Below, one piece after another: positions 7,689-31,818 of a stretch of DNA of 64,000 bases. Made by a program: the position numbers and the translations under genes. Source of the stretch: an uncultured Gemmatimonadota bacterium (GTDB lineage: Bacteria; JAAXHH01); NCBI GenBank assembly GCA_951812955.1, contig OX638340.1, positions 3,712,001 to 3,776,000 of the forward strand, given 5' to 3'. The notes under the pieces are model-generated. The model did not search any database and was not told the DNA's origin. It saw nothing but the letters and a program-made list of their open reading frames with translations. The stretch's first letter is position 1, and every line of letters starts with the position of its first letter.

Positions 7689-8471
7689 CTACTTCGAGGA
7701 CGAATGGATCACGCCGCTTAGTGGACTGGACGCGGACGCATAGGCCTTCATGGGTATCCTGCCCGCTTCGTAGGCAAGGCGTCCGGCTTCAACCGCCTTG
7801 CGCATGGCGACGGCCATTTTCACCGGATCCCGTGCACCGGCCACGCCGGTATTCATCAGTATGCCGTCGCAGCCCAGCTCCATGGCGACGGATGCGTCGG
7901 AAGCGGTGCCGACGCCTGCGTCGACGATAACGGGTACCTGGCTGTTCTCGACGATGATGGCGATGTTGTGCGGGTTGCGTATGCCCAGGCCGGATCCGAT
8001 CGGCGCGGCCAGGGGCATGACCGCGACACAGCCCGCTTCTTCGAGCTTCTTGCAGATGATGGGATCGTCAATCGTATAGGGCATGACGTTGAATCCCCGA
8101 TCCACCAGGATGCGGGCGGCTTCCAGGGTGGCTTCGTTATCCGGGAACAGGGTCTTTTCATCCCCGATGACTTCGAGCTTTACCGTATCCGCGCCCAGTG
8201 CCTCCCGCGCCAGTTCGCAGGTCAGTACGGCGTCCTCGGCCGTATAGCATCCGGCCGTGTTGGGCAGCAGCTCGTACCGGTCCCGGTCGATATAATCGAG
8301 CAGCGACTCTCCCGAGGGATCATTCAGGTCGATTCGGCGAATGGCCACCGTAACCATGTCCGTACCGCTGACTTCGAAAGAATCCCGCATCAGTTCGAAA
8401 TTCGCGTATTTCCCCGTCCCGAGAATCAATCGGGATTTCAACTCCAATTCGCCTATTTTAAGGGCGCCCAT
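7689..8471 (-). CDS. thiG: thiazole synthase
   Basis: [20 protein letters not shown]...VKLEVIGD...[11 protein letters not shown] is canonical ThiG. The ATG at 8471 (AGGAG 9 nt upstream) is preferred over the ATG at 8477. The longer track ORF overlaps thiS. Confidence 0.9.
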
Positions 8472-8583
8472 GTTCATCTGCTCCTTTGCCTGTACAGACC
8501 TGGCCCGCAAGTCGTATTCTGGTTTAGTGCTGCGTGCTGGATCTTCCGCAGCGGCGGTGCTGCGCACGGGATGGTTGCAGCCG

Positions 8584-8784
8584 TTAACCGCCCGCAACCG
8601 CTCGAATCACTTCGACCACGTCATCGTCGGATAGCATTGCCGTCCCGTGATCCTTCCTCGGGACGACCGCTCCGTTCAGGGCCACTGCGGTCCCTTCGGA
8701 AGGCACGCCAAGCTCTTTCAGCAGGTCGGCGATGCTCGTGTCGCGGGGCAGATCCCGGGTTGTCCCGTTAACTGTCATGTTCAT
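8584..8784 (-). CDS. thiS: sulfur carrier protein ThiS
   Basis: 66 aa ending ...VIRAVAGG (C-terminal GG). Its start overlaps the thiO stop. Confidence 0.85.
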
Positions 8785-9922
8785 CGTTCGTCTCTCCGGT
8801 TCGAGCGGCGTAGAACCGATCGGGCAGAAAGGGCCGCATGATAGGGGGAACCCGATCGTGCAGGATTGCCTCGGCGATCAGGTCTCCTGTGAGCGGTGCA
8901 AGCAATATGCCGTTACGGCCGTGCCCGGATGCCGCGTATAGGCCGGGCGTACCCATGGCGCCAAGCACGGGCCATCCGTCCCGCGCCACCGGCCGCAGTC
9001 CCGACCAGGTGGAATCCAGCGGCCAGGATTTCAGACCGGGCGCAAGTTCGAGCGCGCTACGGAACAACTGCATGACTCCACCCAAAGTGACTTCGTCTCG
9101 AAACCCGGCTTCCTCCACGGTAGCGCCGATGATCAGCCGTCCGTCCGAACGGGGAACCAGGTATGCGCCGCCGGTGTATATCGTGTGCTTGAATGGTGTC
9201 GCCGCGCCCGTCCGCAGTGCGAGTATCTGGCCGCGCACCGGCCTAATGGGGATTCGGTGTGCGGCCGGGATGCCTTCCAGGTAGCGGGCCCGGCAGCCCA
9301 TGGCGTTTACTACCGTTGGCGTGTTCCACAGGCCGTCCGTTGTATCGACCCCGGCGACGCGATTTCCGTCCAGTACGATTTTCCGTGCGGTGACGCCTTC
9401 ACGGATTACGCCGCCGTTTAGACGAACGGATTGCGCCAGGGCCGCAACGACGTCCCTGTTTTCTACCTGGTGATCGTCCGGGTAGCGTAGCGCCATGCGG
9501 ATGCGGTTGGAAAGATCCGGCTCGAGTCGCCTCGCCTCCCGGACGGTCAGTTTCTCAACGGATACGCCATTCCGCAGGTGCCGTTCATACCGGGTCTCGA
9601 GCCGTGCCTGTTCACCGCCGCTCAACGCCGGATAGATCATCCCCGTGGCGTTGTAGTCTATCGGGCGGCCGGTCTCTTCCCGGAGGGATTCGACGAAACC
9701 GGCATAGCGCTCCAGTCCGGCCCTGCAAAGGATGAAATAAGGATCGGGCTCATCGAATTCGCAGTGCGGCGCCAGCATGCCCGCGGCGGCCCACGACGCG
9801 CCACGGCCGGTTCGGTGCTGCTCGAGTACCGTGACAGCGCTTCCGGATTGACACAGCTGTCTCGCTATGGCCAGACCGATGATCCCGCCGCCGATGACCA
9901 CTATGTCCGATCGTTGCGCCAC
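8768..9922 (-). CDS. thiO: glycine oxidase (FAD-dependent)
   Basis: DIVVIGGGIIGLAIA FAD-binding motif. First gene after the TPP riboswitch, in thiO-thiS-thiG-thiE order. Confidence 0.85.
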   Translation of the reverse strand: MAQRSDIVVIGGGIIGLAIARQLCQSGSAVTVLEQHRTGRGASWAAAGMLAPHCEFDEPDPYFILCRAGLERYAGFVESLREETGRPIDYNATGMIYPALSGGEQARLETRYERHLRNGVSVEKLTVREARRLEPDLSNRIRMALRYPDDHQVENRDVVAALAQSVRLNGGVIREGVTARKIVLDGNRVAGVDTTDGLWNTPTVVNAMGCRARYLEGIPAAHRIPIRPVRGQILALRTGAATPFKHTIYTGGAYLVPRSDGRLIIGATVEEAGFRDEVTLGGVMQLFRSALELAPGLKSWPLDSTWSGLRPVARDGWPVLGAMGTPGLYAASGHGRNGILLAPLTGDLIAEAILHDRVPPIMRPFLPDRFYAARTGETNDEHDS

Positions 9923-27762: not shown

Positions 27763-28731
27763 ATGGATGGTTTACTGAATACGCCGCGGGGACTCGGCCG
27801 CGCGCCTCATATCATCGCGGCGTTGTCCGTACCGGTTAGCGAAGCGGGCGATATCGACTTCGACGTCTTCGCCCAGGACCTCGAGCGGACGGCGCAATAC
27901 GGCATCGAACCCGCGGTGCTCATGGATACCTACCAGATCAACCATTGCACGCGGGATCAACAGGTCAAGGGGCTTGAGATCACCCGGGAAGTCATGAACG
28001 GTAGAGCGTTTACGGCAGGTGTATATGTCGAGGACGAGATCAGGGGTGACGGAATCGAGGACATCATCCGCGCGTACCGGGAGAAAATCGAGCAGCTTGA
28101 ACAACAATACGGCGCATGCCCGATCGTTTTTCAAACCGAGCGATTGAAGCACGCCGACGCCTCCACCGTCATACGCGTTTACGAGGGTCTCGCCGAAAAC
28201 TCGCGAGGCGGCCTGAAGGCATTCGAACTCAGCCCGGTGTTCGCGCCGAACGGCTGGATGTTTCCGGATGACGCGCTGATCGAAATCCTGGCCGGTGACA
28301 AATGGGCTGGCGCGAAGCATTCCTCCCTCGATCCGTCCAAGGAGTGGGCGCTGCTCCGGAAGATCCATCGAATCGGAAAGAAACTGTACACGGGGAACGA
28401 CTACGATTTCGCGTCCATGATATACTATGGGAGCGACGCGCTACTGGGTATCGCGACTTTCATGCCCGACAAGTTCAGGGAACTTTCGGATGCCTTGCAG
28501 GACGGCGACCTTGCGCGGTACCTCGACCTGGGGAGCAGGATGGAATTCCTGGGACGGGTCGCGTTCCAGCCGCCCGTGCCGGCCTACAAGCACAGCGCGG
28601 CCATGGTGAAGAAGATGCGCGGTTGGTATCCCACGGATGATGTGCTGCCCGGTAATCCCCTGCGGCGGGACGAGGCGCACCGGGAAGGGTTGCGGAAAGC
28701 CCTGGAAATCCTGGAAATTCCCTGCGCCTGA
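27763..28731 (+). CDS. hypothetical protein, possibly DapA/aldolase-like TIM-barrel (DUF993-like)
   Basis: 322 aa with clean codon usage. The weak DapA-like N-terminus (AALSVPVSEAGDIDFDVFAQDLERTAQYGIEPAVLMDTYQ) is only suggestive. Confidence 0.3.
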   Translation: MDGLLNTPRGLGRAPHIIAALSVPVSEAGDIDFDVFAQDLERTAQYGIEPAVLMDTYQINHCTRDQQVKGLEITREVMNGRAFTAGVYVEDEIRGDGIEDIIRAYREKIEQLEQQYGACPIVFQTERLKHADASTVIRVYEGLAENSRGGLKAFELSPVFAPNGWMFPDDALIEILAGDKWAGAKHSSLDPSKEWALLRKIHRIGKKLYTGNDYDFASMIYYGSDALLGIATFMPDKFRELSDALQDGDLARYLDLGSRMEFLGRVAFQPPVPAYKHSAAMVKKMRGWYPTDDVLPGNPLRRDEAHREGLRKALEILEIPCA

Positions 28732-28738
28732 ACGATTG

Positions 28739-30016
28739 CTACCGGCGAGTGTACCGCGCCAGGAGACTCGATATCTCCCGGGTCAGTTCGCTCGTCTTGT
28801 CGTCGCCGCACGAAAGCGTGCTTTCCAGCGCGTCCGCCAGGCCGGCGATCTCATCGCAAAAGGCCTTGTGTTCCTGGGCATGTCTTGCCAGGGCCGCGCG
28901 CAGATCAGCGAGGATTTCCACCGTCTTCGCACCGGGATCGACGGGATCCATCGTGGATGACGCTTGTTCTTCGTCTTCCCCTGCTTCCGCGTCATCCTCG
29001 GTTGCTCGTGCTGCCGTGTCTTCCATATCTTCCCCTGCTTCCGCGTCATCCTCGGTTGCTCGTGCAGATGCGTCTACCTCGTCTACCTGCGCCACTGCGT
29101 CATGCTCGTCTACCCCAGCCACCACGTCTTCCTCCGAAGCCCCGGTCTCATCACCCTCCGGGAATGCTTGCCCCTCGTCGGCGTATCCTATTGCGGATTC
29201 CGGGGCGGACACGGATTCCTGTCCTGGCTCGTCCGTCAAATCGGTCCGGTCGCCGGGTGTACCCTGACCTGCCGGTTCGGCGACGCCGCTGAACGAATAC
29301 GTATCAACGGCCTCCCGTGCATATAAGTCTCCGTCGACTTCCTCTGGCGCTTCATCCGCAATATCACCGTTGGTCACTACTCCGGCGGCCTCCACGGTCT
29401 CTGCAGTTTCCGCCTCGTCCCGCACTTCCTCGGCTTCGATTTCCTCTGGCGCTTCATCCGCAATATCACCGTTGGTCACTACTCCGGCGGCCTCCACGGT
29501 CTCTGCAGTTTCCGCCTCGTCCCGCACTTCCTCGGCTTCGATTTCCTCTGGCGCTTCATCCGCAATATCACCGTTGGTCACTACTCCGGCGGCCTCCACG
29601 GTCTCTGCAGTTTCCGCCTCGTCCCGCGTTACGCTGGCTTCGACTTCCCCAGGCGTTTCATCCGCGATATCAGTTCGTGTTTCCACTTCGGCGGCGTCCG
29701 CGGTCTCTGCAGTTTCCGCCTCGTCCCGGCCGTATACGGTTGCCGTCTCGTCGACAGACTCGGTTAAAGGCTCGGTATGGTCCGGCGCCCGGCCGTATTG
29801 CCGGCGCGGCGTACCGTTGGAATCCGGACGCTCCGGCGCCGGTTCGCCGGTCCGGGAATGCATAAACAGATCGATGGACTCCCTGGACACGAAGTATCTG
29901 CCGTCCTCCAGGTAGTACTCCAGCTTTCCTTCTACGCACATTCGCGTCACCTGGTCGGGCAACTGCTTCATCAAGTCCGCAGTTTCCAGCAAGGTCATCC
30001 ACTGCGTTTCCGCCAT
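28739..30016 (-). CDS. highly acidic tandem-repeat protein with N-terminal excisionase/MerR-type HTH domain
   Basis: The N-terminus MTLLETADLMKQLPDQVTRMCVEGKLEYYLEDGRYFVSRESIDLFM has the HTH_17/Xis pattern. The body is ~60% D/E/A/T, with 34-aa repeats (RDEAETAETVEAAGVVTNGDIADEAPEEIEAEEV) x3+ and 19-aa repeats (ATEDDAEAGEDxEDTAAR) x2. A short helical C-terminal segment closes the protein. Confidence 0.75.
   Translation of the reverse strand: MAETQWMTLLETADLMKQLPDQVTRMCVEGKLEYYLEDGRYFVSRESIDLFMHSRTGEPAPERPDSNGTPRRQYGRAPDHTEPLTESVDETATVYGRDEAETAETADAAEVETRTDIADETPGEVEASVTRDEAETAETVEAAGVVTNGDIADEAPEEIEAEEVRDEAETAETVEAAGVVTNGDIADEAPEEIEAEEVRDEAETAETVEAAGVVTNGDIADEAPEEVDGDLYAREAVDTYSFSGVAEPAGQGTPGDRTDLTDEPGQESVSAPESAIGYADEGQAFPEGDETGASEEDVVAGVDEHDAVAQVDEVDASARATEDDAEAGEDMEDTAARATEDDAEAGEDEEQASSTMDPVDPGAKTVEILADLRAALARHAQEHKAFCDEIAGLADALESTLSCGDDKTSELTREISSLLARYTRR
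29341..29646 (-). repeat. three perfect 102-bp in-frame tandem repeats (degenerate copies extend to ~29325 and ~29740)
   Basis: The unit cctctggcgcttcatccgcaatatcaccgttggtcactactccggcggcctccacggtctctgcagtttccgcctcgtcccgcacttcctcggcttcgattt recurs at 29341, 29443 and 29545. Confidence 0.9.
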
Positions 30017-30096
30017 CTTCTCCTCCTGCGCTTATGATCTACTGCCTGTACGCTGGTGTTCCAGCCGCCTTCCGAGTACAGACCATCCGCTCCGGT

Positions 30097-30378
30097 CTAG
30101 AAAACCTCTCCGGCTACCTGCCTGCCGTCGATTCGCAACTGCAATCTAATGCTCAACAACGCTTTTGCAAATACTTCCACGCGGTAGTCGTCGGTCCCGA
30201 TCCGGAGATTCGTGCTCAAAATGCGCGTTTTTCGAAGCGATACGCGTCGGATGCTCCGGTCCCTGCAGACTCCGTCGATGTAAAGCCGGGCGTCCTGGGT
30301 CCAGGTGCTGAATACCCTGATTTCGTGGCCTTTGAATTCCGCCCTGCACTCGACGCCGTCCGGGTCAGACATGTACAT
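30097..30378 (-). CDS. small hypothetical protein (93 aa) translationally coupled to upstream DUF2851 gene
   Basis: ATG at 30378 is adjacent to the DUF2851 TGA, with AGGAGA 4 nt upstream. The protein MYMSDPDGVECRAEFKGHEIRVFSTWTQDARLYIDGVCRDR... shows real-looking, non-Arg-biased composition. Confidence 0.6.
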   Translation of the reverse strand: MYMSDPDGVECRAEFKGHEIRVFSTWTQDARLYIDGVCRDRSIRRVSLRKTRILSTNLRIGTDDYRVEVFAKALLSIRLQLRIDGRQVAGEVF

Positions 30379-31818
30379 TCATCTCCTGATGAAGTGCGCC
30401 GAACCGTTCATTACGCATTGGCCGCAGGCCTTGTTCCGGCAAGTTTCGCGGTCTATCTGCAGCAGGCCCTGCTGAAGGATGGCCCGGTCGATGGAGGCCT
30501 TCTTCTCGGGCGTATCGCTGAACAGCAGGTTCGACATCGATTGGATCACGCTGTTGCTGGCCTGTCTGCCGTATCCGGTGTACATTTCCCTGACAAGCTG
30601 CATCCGGTCCGATTGGCTGTCCCGGTCGGCGATGGCGTAGATGAACGGAAGGATCACGTCGATCATCATGCCGCGCTGGCGGTCGCGGCCGATCAGGGCG
30701 GTACGGGCCGTTCGTGATGTTTCCCCGAACACGGTATGCTTCAGCCAGTAGTCGCCGGGCTGGGGCCTGGTCATTTCCTCGAATTGCCGCGTGATCTGCC
30801 GCAGCAATGCGACAGGCCCCCGTCTGGCGCCGATGTCCATCGGGCCGGCGATCAGCGTGTCCAGACCATCCCGAAGGCCCGCCGCAATAAAGTAACTCAT
30901 GGCAGCGAGCCGGACCGTGGGGAAGTTAAAAGGTCTCAGCCTAAAAAACAACCAGTCATGTTCCTGCATGGGGCGGGTGGGAATGGACCGGCTGAAGGCT
31001 TCCCATCGCGTTTCGATTTCCCTGACGTAAGGATCGTCCGGAATTTCCCCGCAGTATGAAAGACGCTGCGAGGGCAGCAGTCCGGCCGCGCCGAACAGTA
31101 CAGCCTGCAAATCGACGATTCGATGGCCGCCACCCGTGCCGACCAGGGCGCGAATCGTCGTCAGAGGCAGACGGCGGGCAAGTGCCTGGAAGGAATCGGT
31201 GTTTTTACCGTATCCCGCGGCCCGCATGGCGAATTCATATAGCGCCTGTTCCGCCGAGACCCGATCCATCCTGCTTGAAATGGCTGCCGCCTTCTGCCGA
31301 AACCTGTCGGATCCTTTCCGATCAAGCAATGCGTGTACGCGCTCGACCGACAACTGTTTCATCAGGCGCTGGCAGGGATAGCCGCCGGGAGTCGGTATCT
31401 CCAGCCTCCGCCGGTACTGTTTGCGTATGCGGTCCAGGCCATGCCGAAAGTGCTCGGATAAAACCAGCGTGGGGATGTACTGCCCGTTCTGTTTCCGGAC
31501 GACCGGCAGTTTTTCGTCGTGCCACATGACTACGTGCAGTACCACGTCATTGTAATGAGGGTCGCGGGTATGGCCATGTCGTTGCCAGTCGGCGGGTCTT
31601 ACATGGATTTCCACGTCACCGCGAAGCCGTTTGCCGGGTCCGAAGGACAGGACCGCCCTGAGGAAATCGGGCCCGCTGTCCTGGTTCAGTGTACCGGGAT
31701 GATACAGCCTGAGTGACCTACCGTCGGTAAGCCGGAGCCTTCCGGCCTTTGGCAATCCTTCCTGCCATAGATGCCAGATGAGCGCTTCCGCTATGTCCGA
31801 ATCGGCGATTTGAAGCAT
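30379..31818 (-). CDS. DUF2851-family protein
   Basis: The N-terminus ...IWHLWQEGL...LTDGRSLRLYHPGTLNQDSGPDFLRAVLSFG...GDVEIHVRPADWQRHGHTRDPHYNDVVLHVV fits the remembered DUF2851 signature (HPG..N.D.GPDF...EIH...SDW..HGH..D..Y..V.LHVV). Confidence 0.55.
   Translation of the reverse strand: MLQIADSDIAEALIWHLWQEGLPKAGRLRLTDGRSLRLYHPGTLNQDSGPDFLRAVLSFGPGKRLRGDVEIHVRPADWQRHGHTRDPHYNDVVLHVVMWHDEKLPVVRKQNGQYIPTLVLSEHFRHGLDRIRKQYRRRLEIPTPGGYPCQRLMKQLSVERVHALLDRKGSDRFRQKAAAISSRMDRVSAEQALYEFAMRAAGYGKNTDSFQALARRLPLTTIRALVGTGGGHRIVDLQAVLFGAAGLLPSQRLSYCGEIPDDPYVREIETRWEAFSRSIPTRPMQEHDWLFFRLRPFNFPTVRLAAMSYFIAAGLRDGLDTLIAGPMDIGARRGPVALLRQITRQFEEMTRPQPGDYWLKHTVFGETSRTARTALIGRDRQRGMMIDVILPFIYAIADRDSQSDRMQLVREMYTGYGRQASNSVIQSMSNLLFSDTPEKKASIDRAILQQGLLQIDRETCRNKACGQCVMNGSAHFIRR

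Follow-up and report, generated by a model that had tools for sequence, protein, structure and literature searches.

PopZ combines a conserved helical oligomerisation domain with a disordered region that is unconserved in sequence, carries a net charge of -0.28 per residue and varies in its features by clade, and the spacer logic of this linker has been shown experimentally (PMC9512792). The delta subunit of RNA polymerase (RNAP) joins a folded N-terminal domain to a disordered acidic C-terminal region (-47) and displaces nucleic acids from RNAP (PMC7749165). Ocr and ArdA, which are borne by phages and mobile elements, are compact folded dimers with carboxylates at DNA phosphate positions (PMC3439906). 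We compare these systems with a locus in the window (the whole 64,000-nt stretch of DNA that was analysed) that encodes a DUF2851 protein, a 93-aa protein (orf93) and an extremely acidic protein with a helix-turn-helix (HTH) N-terminus. The best explanation we can offer, which we hold at somewhat less than an even chance, is a two-gene pair in which orf93 accompanies an HTH protein with conserved binding ends and a flexible charged linker, DUF2851 being separate. The features are as follows.

30379..31818, minus strand: DUF2851 gene, 479 aa, pI ~10, with a Pfam match; a neighbour in this clade, outside the conserved pair
30382..30387, minus strand: Shine-Dalgarno AGGAGA for orf93, read from the sequence; the last two DUF2851 codons
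30097..30378, minus strand: orf93, 93 aa (91 aa from the probable true start, 30372), a small all-beta protein
30017..30096, minus strand: 80-nt intergenic spacer, orf93 to HTH gene; AGGAGGAG at 30020..30027
29849..30016, minus strand: N-terminal HTH_17-type winged helix, aa 1-56; HTH_17 end to end, sub-threshold in the window copy
29783..29818, minus strand: short basic motif NGTPRRQYGRAP, aa 67-78, conserved, within the linker
28928..29848, minus strand: linker (aa 57-363), disordered and highly charged, with a net -0.28 per residue
29334..29728, minus strand: 102-nt (34-aa) tandem repeat, 3.9 copies, TRF score 637
28987..29108, minus strand: 54-nt (18-aa) imperfect tandem repeat, 2.3 copies, 76% matches in TRF, units ASARATEDDAEAGEDMED and TAARATEDDAEAGEDEEQ
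28739..28927, minus strand: two-helix C-terminal domain, aa 364-425 plus stop codon, conserved

Gene layout and expression signals

An ORF listing bore out the three minus-strand ORFs that the sequence-only reading had placed here (30379..31818, 479 aa; 30097..30378, 93 aa; 28739..30016, 425 aa). All three are under purifying selection, and they are genuine co-directional chromosomal genes. They lie in a neighbourhood of housekeeping genes (Ubi genes, Nth, PlsC) that is syntenic across 25 species; 21 high-GC genomes are collinear for >12 kb, and thus synteny among these is uninformative on function. The host is an uncultured bacterium, labelled Gemmatimonadota or Latescibacterota.

The DUF2851 stop codon had been described as abutting the ATG of orf93, with AGGAGA as the ribosome-binding site, and both can be read in the sequence: TGA occupies 30381..30379 and an ATG follows immediately. 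As the start of a 93-aa protein this ATG is less secure. It lies only 3 nt from AGGAGA (first ATG, 30378), whereas a second ATG (30372) lies at the normal spacing of 9 nt, and orf93 orthologues are mostly 91 aa long and start where the second ATG falls. The probable true start is 30372.

The gap of eighty nt reported before the 425-aa ORF measured 80 nt, and this spacer spans 54-102 nt across ~30 loci. Its sole conserved element at these loci is GGAGGAG, 4-6 nt 5' of the ATG; neither a T-tract terminator nor a conserved promoter was found in it across the ~30 loci, and inspection for a conserved palindrome or operator likewise turned up none. Since a Shine-Dalgarno is conserved in the spacer and a terminator or promoter is not, co-transcription of the third gene is plausible, and the three ORFs are probably co-transcribed.

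DUF2851 and the conserved pair

The ORF at 30379..31818 matches Pfam DUF2851 (PF11013) with an E of 4e-72 and 243.6 bits against a cut-off of 25, over profile positions 1-366 of 375, so that its earlier assignment to this family is secure. It had further been proposed that the products of all three genes work as one functional unit, the core of the acidic HTH protein acting as an Ocr/ArdA-type DNA mimic or as a chaperone/cation-binding tail, a reading that we now consider very unlikely. The three genes are adjacent in 21 high-GC genomes, with the DUF2851 stop and orf93 start 0-6 nt apart or overlapping, and keep their order at L007, L008 and L031, where DUF2851 identity is 48-53%; these observations favour a unit, and a tight DUF2851-orf93 coupling is plausible. 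However, DUF2851 is a widespread family that has unrelated neighbours at 30-46% identity. It occurs with neither orf93 nor an HTH partner at L009 (46% identity) and L035-L037 (~30%), where the partners' absence was checked also by unfiltered (--max) profile search, so relatives without an acidic or HTH partner exist, which is what the sequence-only reading had itself named as a refutation. At L001 and L034, orf93 and the HTH gene lie between PlsC and DUF993 without DUF2851, at a site that is otherwise collinear. These neighbourhood data already largely refute the three-gene unit. DUF2851 stands apart as a widespread protein of enzyme-like character; it lies upstream by chance in part of the clade, and a false lead is removed by placing it outside the orf93-HTH unit.

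DUF2851 shows weak fold hints of a DNA enzyme and gains a first testable hypothesis, namely that it may be a nucleic-acid-processing enzyme. Under this hypothesis, it would combine a nuclease-like, metal-dependent domain with a helical domain resembling HhH-GPD and a site of four Cys. Foldseek gave no significant match for DUF2851 (best E 0.047), which applies equally to the PD-(D/E)XK nucleases that were compared with its N-terminal domain. The catalytic Lys/Asp of the HhH-GPD DNA glycosylases (EndoIII, AGOG, AlkA, MutY) were not identified in DUF2851, hhalign against the neighbouring Nth family returned a probability of 0.5%, and a DUF2851 profile search against PDB sequences found no glycosylase and no nuclease.

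The evolutionarily stable unit appears, from gene order, to be two genes, orf93 and the HTH-linker-helix protein. At every HTH-protein locus having upstream sequence (the window, L001, L002, L004, L006-L008, L010-L031, L034, L038, L039, L041 and L042), orf93 lies immediately upstream, with the single exception of one lineage in which, at three loci, a single gene (g186) stands between them. Their adjacency suggests that the two proteins may interact physically. The orf93 fold is confidently predicted to be a FAIM-like eight-stranded beta-sandwich; Pfam FAIM1 did not match orf93. Relatives of the orf93 domain are found as C-terminal modules on a Ser/Thr kinase, a TIR protein, membrane proteins and three HTH-like proteins, and thus a role as a binding module fits. 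Two relatives (L032, L033) have no HTH protein nearby.

Conserved ends and a variable charged linker

The HTH protein is built from an HTH_17-type winged helix of ~55 aa, an RRxYG motif, a disordered linker and a two-helix C-terminal domain of ~60 aa. The excisionase-type HTH named in the sequence-only reading stands at the family level, where HTH_17 (PF12728) is matched by 20/20 N-terminal domains at E <1 (best E 6e-07), but not for the window copy taken singly, which covers profile positions 1-50 of 51 at E 0.007-0.014 and 16.1-17.1 bits, below the Pfam cut-off of 27. Additionally, Rv2175c_wHTH is matched by 9/20 family members and the PHROG excisionase family phrog_66 matches the HTH protein weakly; PDB sequences searched with an N-terminal profile yielded no significant match. 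The winged helix carries a net charge of ~-5, which is atypical of DNA binders, and therefore DNA binding is an assumption taken from the family name.

Following the winged helix, RR[QKR]YG[RK] is present in most family members at positions 71-122, with variants in L034 (QRRYGE) and L008 (LRKYGE) that lose the last basic residue (YGE). The C-terminal domain has 9 invariant and 9 nearly invariant columns among 18 diverse members, including ELTREISSLLARY, and its dN/dS is 0.09-0.21, compared with 0.09-0.65 for the N-terminal domain. Pfam produced only chance-level matches, to unrelated families, for the last 73 residues of the protein at E up to 10, and a profile search against PDB sequences returned nothing. 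Its heptad-like hydrophobic spacing suggests that it may self-associate.

The extreme acidity noted earlier, with a pI put near 3.5, is real: acidic residues (47 D, 73 E) far outnumber basic ones (5 K, 23 R) in the 425-aa protein, whose net charge is ~-91 and whose pI is 3.60 (EMBOSS pK values), the Biopython value of 4.05 being the lower limit of that program's pI search and no real pI. Its core (aa 96-345) has a pI of 3.18 and is 80% D/E/A/T/V/G, and, of the 51 window ORFs, this protein alone has a pI <4.5. An analysis of disorder and charge, which the sequence-only reading had called for, placed the middle of the protein on the disordered side of the charge-hydropathy boundary, and mean linker hydropathy is under the Uversky boundary in all family members. 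Family members have linkers of 123-325 aa that are little conserved in sequence and rich in indels, with a fraction of charged residues of 0.27-0.43 and a net charge per residue of -0.31 to -0.01 (median -0.24). Low-GC lineages have only -0.10 to -0.13 per residue, and the L008 lineage has a neutral (-0.01), Pro/Lys/Glu-rich linker with unchanged terminal domains. Extreme negative charge therefore appears to be a matter of tuning within one clade and no family invariant.

Perfect 34-aa and 19-aa repeats had been thought to make up a core of ~330 aa. We found that repeats form roughly half of the linker. The 34-aa units begin at aa 97, 131, 165 and 199, and only two of the 3.9 copies in the assembled sequence are identical (102/102 nt), the rest matching at 92/102 and 79/102; the shorter repeat has a period of 18 aa (54 nt) and 2.3 copies at 76% identity. 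Copy number of the 34-aa repeat ranges from 0 to 4 among the closest relatives, and the tandem repeats appear to be recent, strain-variable linker expansions. Long spurious ORFs lie opposite the repeat region on the other strand.

It is barely credible that the acidic repeat ORF, or its number of repeats, is an assembly artefact, or that the gene is decaying or unexpressed, given a reading frame kept in >75 orthologues despite the indel-rich linker, a dN/dS of 0.09-0.4 in the terminal domains, a conserved strong Shine-Dalgarno and the presence of the gene in complete single-chromosome MAGs as well. Suspicion of an artefact would draw on the two 100% identical 102-nt units, as short-read assemblers collapse or expand such sequence, on the gene at L016 (a MAG), where a break within the linker leaves two ORFs, and on the spurious opposite-strand ORFs.

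The same linker data weaken the suggestion of Ocr/ArdA-style mimicry. Although the extreme acidity of the protein is in keeping with a mimic, the acidic region is disordered, length-variable and not always acidic, and its variability together with its neutrality in one lineage argues against structured DNA mimicry of this kind. No Ocr/ArdA family matched the whole acidic protein in Pfam at E up to 0.1, PADLOC and PHROGs gave no match for the acidic region, and tblastn against phage and plasmid collections found nothing. The syntenic housekeeping neighbourhood also speaks against a mimic.

We favour the modular, two-gene reading because the terminal domains are nearly invariant and the linker is variable yet highly charged and of low hydropathy. 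Specific binding would then be done by the conserved ends: the winged helix would bind DNA or another protein, self-association would fall to the amphipathic C-terminal helices, and orf93 would be contacted by the basic motif or the C-terminal domain. The linker may be a flexible, self-repelling spacer, on which selection would keep disorder and high charge density and not sequence. As a counter-point to a pure spacer model, charge is strongly negative in most members, and its sign may matter more.

Two other readings give the linker charge a more direct part. In one, which we regard as unlikely, the winged helix would dock on a nucleic-acid-binding machine (RNAP, a nucleoid protein or DUF2851), the acidic linker would compete with DNA or RNA in its cleft and the basic motif would modulate the conformation of the tail. 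The delta tail contains a short basic tract, to which RRxYG would be analogous. The linker holds most of the net charge, strong acidity is kept in most members, a net-negative winged helix suits protein docking better than DNA binding, the weak fold hints make DUF2851 a conceivable target and the delta subunit provides a precedent (PMC7749165). Such competition sits poorly with the neutral L008 linker on the same terminal domains and with the low charge of the low-GC lineages, and in delta no conserved C-terminal helical domain follows the tail. There was also no match to an RNAP-subunit family or to HARE-HTH, the latter absent from N-terminal Pfam scans at E up to 10 and from 20 family members.

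The other, which we consider rather improbable, is an autoinhibited DNA binder, whose acidic linker would fold back on the winged helix and the RRxYG arm and so raise specificity or put binding under the control of a signal or of orf93. HMGB1 with its acidic tail and sigma-70 with its region 1.1 offer an analogy. The order of modules, an HTH-type domain, then a conserved Arg-rich motif, then a polyanionic tract, is compatible with fold-back, and orf93, always adjacent, could be the releasing factor. Yet the winged helix is itself net negative, which leaves only the short basic motif as a target; the motif of L008 and L034 is without its final basic residue, L008 also has a neutral linker, and a linker of 120-325 aa far exceeds what fold-back needs.

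Comparison with known systems

The likeness to Ocr/ArdA is that Asp and Glu outnumber Lys and Arg to an extreme degree. However, carboxylates are positionally conserved in those proteins whereas the acidic region here has no positional conservation, and those proteins are encoded by phages or mobile elements whereas the gene here is chromosomal. The N-terminal 50 residues align with HTH_17 end to end, as in the HTH_17/excisionase-MerR type represented by Xis, AlpA, TorI and Rv2175c. Unlike Xis/AlpA-type proteins, the domain is net negative and stands in a chromosomal context that is neither phage- nor integrase-linked. In the same polypeptide it is followed by a linker of 120-325 aa and then by a novel C-terminal domain. 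FAIM (Fas apoptosis inhibitory molecule) shares 13% sequence identity with orf93, has two domains where orf93 has one, and is eukaryotic; a transfer of its function to orf93 is unjustified. With the RNAP delta subunit (RpoE) of Firmicutes, the HTH protein shares a polyanionic, intrinsically disordered tract that comes after a folded N-terminal domain, but this tract is terminal in delta and internal here, with a conserved helical domain after it, and acidity is lost in one lineage here (L008).

By analogy with PopZ, the pair could be a chromosome- or partner-tethered, self-assembling hub peculiar to this uncultured clade, with a linker retuned by gain and loss of repeats, a repeat-expandable polyanion that would set assembly spacing or material properties. 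In a variant, the linker would be a tethered disordered nucleic-acid mimic gating a DNA enzyme such as DUF2851. We regard this more specific proposal as distinctly doubtful. Should the pair act as the two-gene reading proposes, bacteria would have evolved the design known from PopZ a second time, independently, and would here have joined it to an HTH domain and a FAIM-like partner; the strain-to-strain repeat number would be a natural tuning knob. Practical impact is limited, as the carriers are all uncultured MAGs and all statements on function are inference. Several of the carrier MAGs are apparently from sponges or corals.

PopZ families gave no match in Pfam at E up to 10, and no sequence relationship to PopZ was found. 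The N-terminus is a short helix in PopZ and a winged helix of ~55 aa here; PopZ has three C-terminal helices, whereas two are predicted here; linker proline is 0.23-0.29 in PopZ and 0.04-0.14 here; linker length is narrowly conserved in PopZ and spans 123-325 aa here; and one lineage here (L008) has a neutral linker. What the two have in common is an overall plan that runs from a binding element at the N-terminus through an acidic disordered linker to a highly conserved helical domain at the C-terminus, and a linker that shifts in its features from clade to clade and keeps its composition and not its sequence, at -0.28 per residue in PopZ and a median of -0.24 here.

A two-gene unit beside DUF2851

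We find that two of three adjacent minus-strand genes, orf93 (encoding a small beta-sandwich, FAIM-like protein) and the gene of an acidic protein with a helix-turn-helix (HTH) N-terminus, form a stable unit, and that the DUF2851 gene upstream is a looser neighbour of this pair. Loci (L numbers) were fetched via each of the three proteins in turn. In every HTH-encoding locus with upstream sequence, orf93 lies directly upstream or one gene away, and this linkage marks the pair as the stable unit; DUF2851 occurs with or without these partners.

Genes and repeats of the region
30379..31818, minus strand: DUF2851 gene, 479 aa (PF11013, 243.6 bits, E 4e-72)
30097..30378, minus strand: orf93, 93 aa (ORF call)
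28739..30016, minus strand: acidic HTH protein, 425 aa (ORF call)
29334..29728, minus strand: 102-nt (34-aa) tandem repeat, 3.9 copies (Tandem Repeats Finder)
28987..29108, minus strand: 54-nt (18-aa) tandem repeat, 2.3 copies, imperfect (Tandem Repeats Finder)

Gene order at the fetched loci
21 high-GC genomes: PlsC (-), DUF2851-orf93-HTH, DUF993 (-), Nth; >12 kb collinear
L001, L034 (GC 0.40-0.44): orf93-HTH between PlsC and DUF993, without DUF2851
L007, L008, L031: DUF2851-orf93, an extra 186-aa gene, HTH
L009 (DUF2851 46% identity), L035-L037 (~30%): DUF2851 among unrelated TrkH/TrkA, OMP decarboxylase and TP-methylase genes
L032, L033: orf93 adjoining an apparent enolase-superfamily gene; neither partner within 8 kb

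The sequence-only reading had proposed a three-gene functional unit with an acidic core that might mimic DNA or act as a chaperone or cation-binding tail. This grouping is contradicted by L009 and L035-L037, neighbourhoods of the kind that the reading itself had named as refuting it and where even hmmsearch --max gave no match to orf93, the HTH or the C-terminal domain of the HTH protein, and by L001 and L034, where the pair stands without DUF2851. Additionally, PADLOC and PHROGs returned no defence or phage family, except for a weak excisionase-type match to the HTH, and the phage and plasmid collections contained no tblastn match. The core is as acidic and probably as disordered as that reading supposed, and an Ocr/ArdA-type three-gene unit is nonetheless very improbable. 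Synteny among the 21 high-GC genomes was dropped as functional evidence because the entire 12-kb region is collinear.

The extra 186-aa gene (L008 7921..8481, L007 7931..8491, L031 6397..6957) is confined to one lineage, has a pI of ~4.5 and no family match, and seems split into two ORFs in L031. At L032 (8215..9417) and L033 (7999..9201), a 400-aa gene follows orf93 with slight overlap, with rho nearby; its product resembles enzymes of the enolase superfamily (mandelate racemase-like).

An exhaustive profile search placed orf93 among 131 representative clusters, mostly stand-alone proteins of ~90 aa. In some, an orf93-like domain forms the C-terminal part of a membrane Ser/Thr kinase, a TIR protein, membrane proteins or one of three proteins with an HTH-like segment. 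Such fusions (P0248, P0354, P0361, P0240, P0242 and P0271) would suit a small binding or sensor module; in P0361, a TM2 and zinc-ribbon protein, the domain is N-terminal. The HTH-like segment of those three fusion clusters (RSWxELGxLMGxTRQAAQQRF) was sub-threshold at E ~0.12 and was not used as Rosetta-stone support for the pair. The next-nearest orf93 relative, P0233, lies on an uninformative 1-kb contig. FAIM has a reported anti-aggregation activity, which for orf93 we take as no more than a lead.

In the DUF2851 protein, D51, E70, H72, H81, H83, H95, C149, C465 and C468 are invariant and C460 nearly so. Its AF2 model is confident (pLDDT 88.2), and neither Foldseek with this model nor a profile search of PDB sequences found a significant or relevant PDB match. 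Comparison with the neighbouring EndoIII-like family by hhalign reached 0.5% probability and aligned the Cys-rich tail alone. In the literature searched, DUF2851 has one passing mention, and PF11013 yielded Plasmodium gene names only.

Junctions and gene reality

The three ORFs, the TGA/ATG junction, the AGGAGA motif and the 80-nt gap can all be read from the sequence, as first described. The DUF2851 stop directly abuts the ATG of orf93, and AGGAGA forms the final two DUF2851 codons. Most orf93 orthologues start at the second ATG (30372; 91 aa), for which Shine-Dalgarno spacing is normal (9 nt). The third ORF is preceded by an 80-nt spacer with AGGAGGAG; across loci this spacer measures 54-102 nt and conserves only a GGAGGAG Shine-Dalgarno motif. 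A promoter and terminator scan gave no signal beyond shuffled expectation.

Short GC-rich hairpins without a T-tract (for example GACCGGGAGTCCGGTC) occur just 3' of the orf93 stop in L006, L025, L027 and L028 and around 30080..30096 of the window, and could be RNA-stability or attenuation elements. A DUF993-family gene (27763..28731, plus strand) converges on the acidic gene, and the 7 nt between their ends are too few for each to have an intrinsic terminator of its own; this tight spacing recurs in orthologous loci. The sole Rfam match in the window is a TPP riboswitch (RF00059, 9975..10071, minus strand, 69.9 bits, E 1e-11); a 384-aa ORF (8768..9922, minus strand) follows directly downstream.

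Homologues number at least 75 for the acidic protein and 37 for orf93, and all those with a named source are labelled Gemmatimonadetes or Gemmatimonadota. Against 11 orthologous loci, dN/dS is 0.06-0.23 for orf93, 0.09-0.21 for the C-terminal domain of the HTH protein and 0.09-0.65 for its N-terminal domain, the maximum of 0.65 belonging to two nearly identical sequences that differ by few substitutions. The alignment preserves the frame of the acidic gene through many linker indels. That this gene is decaying or an assembly artefact is hardly credible; the one assembly feature in doubt is its exact repeat copy number, because two units are 100% identical in DNA.

In the L016 MAG, the HTH gene is broken inside the linker into two ORFs (8389..8985, 198 aa; 8997..9635, 212 aa), either by an assembly-error frameshift in a repeat-rich region or as a pseudogene. 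Two long ORFs antisense to the repeat region (182 and 181 aa; 29317..29915, plus strand) have repetitive translations (for example PPRSLQFPPRPALPRLRFPLALHPQYHRWSLLRR) and are repeat by-products, not genes. P0028, a 273-aa orthologue of the acidic HTH protein, carries the NCBI name 'type II toxin-antitoxin system VapC family toxin', probably a mis-annotation given that its own sequence lends the name no support.

Anatomy of the HTH protein

Family alignments divide the protein into four parts: a nearly invariant N-terminal domain of ~55 aa, a short basic motif (NGTPRRQYGRAP; RR[QKR]YG[RK] in most members, at positions 71-122), a little-conserved linker of 123-325 aa, and a C-terminal segment of ~60 aa with two predicted amphipathic helices and the motif ELTREISSLLARY. 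HTH_17 matches 20 of 20 diverse family N-termini (best E 6e-07) and Rv2175c_wHTH matches 9. Thus, the Xis/MerR-like assignment of the sequence-only reading is good at family level; the window copy itself aligns end to end at a sub-threshold 16-17 bits. The net charge of this domain is ~-5, and DNA binding is therefore not to be presumed. A mechanism in which the protein inhibits its own binding to DNA appears rather improbable.

Asp and Glu number 120 against 28 Lys and Arg, giving a net charge of ~-91 and a pI of 3.60, close to the 3.5 first predicted (core 3.18, with D/E/A/T/V/G at 80%). A value of 4.05 was discarded as the floor of the Biopython pI search, and values were recomputed. Proteome-wide acidic bias is ruled out, as this protein alone among 51 window ORFs has a pI below 4.5 (median 6.7). 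The repeats had been described as perfect, with 34-aa and 19-aa periods: the 34-aa period is real, only two of its units are identical, and the second period is 18 aa and imperfect. Among the closest relatives (flanking proteins 96-99% identical), the 34-aa unit varies from 0 to 4 copies, and other short acidic repeats expand instead. The perfect repeats are thus recent expansions, differing from strain to strain, of a disordered linker that evolves fast.

As had been anticipated, the linker is predicted to be disordered: every member combines low hydropathy with high charge and falls on the disordered side of the Uversky boundary. In the high-GC clade the median net charge per residue is -0.24; low-GC lineages have values of -0.10 to -0.13, and L008 one of -0.01. 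The L008 linker abounds in Pro, Lys, Glu and Ser and contains PEPEVK repeats, and the terminal domains of this protein are clearly orthologous.

A charged linker between putative binding ends

The C-terminal domain and orf93 are covered by no described family. NCBIfam gave zero matches for all three proteins, the C-terminal domain has no match in Pfam or PDB, and profile searches of both terminal domains against PDB sequences returned chance-level matches only. We found no description of an HTH_17 domain joined to a variable polyanionic linker and a novel helical domain and paired with a FAIM-like protein. Carriers are exclusively uncultured MAGs labelled Gemmatimonadota or Latescibacterota, several presumably from sponges or corals, as we take the isolate prefixes APA_bin, IRC1_bin and Plut to indicate.

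The analysis shows that the genes are real, how their domains are arranged and linked, how the linker varies and which folds are predicted; whatever is said of binding or function is inference. The best-supported reading, held tentatively, is a lineage-specific adaptor or regulator. Its winged helix would engage either DNA or a partner, its C-terminal helices would self-associate, and the basic motif or C-terminal domain may contact orf93, with the linker serving as a flexible, highly charged, self-repelling spacer between these conserved binding ends. The main rival, a tethered polyanion, resembles the RNAP delta subunit, in which a folded N-terminal domain bears a disordered acidic tail (net -47) displacing nucleic acids (PMC7749165). 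The net-negative winged helix speaks for such a polyanion and the neutral linker of L008 against; we consider this rival unlikely.

The adaptor reading has a counterpart in PopZ, whose disordered region carries -0.28 net charges per residue, lacks sequence conservation, is retuned between clades and adjoins a conserved helical oligomerisation domain, a design shown experimentally (PMC9512792). The design proposed here likewise sets a conserved helical end beside a variable charged linker, and the architecture of the HTH protein is a variant of this known principle.
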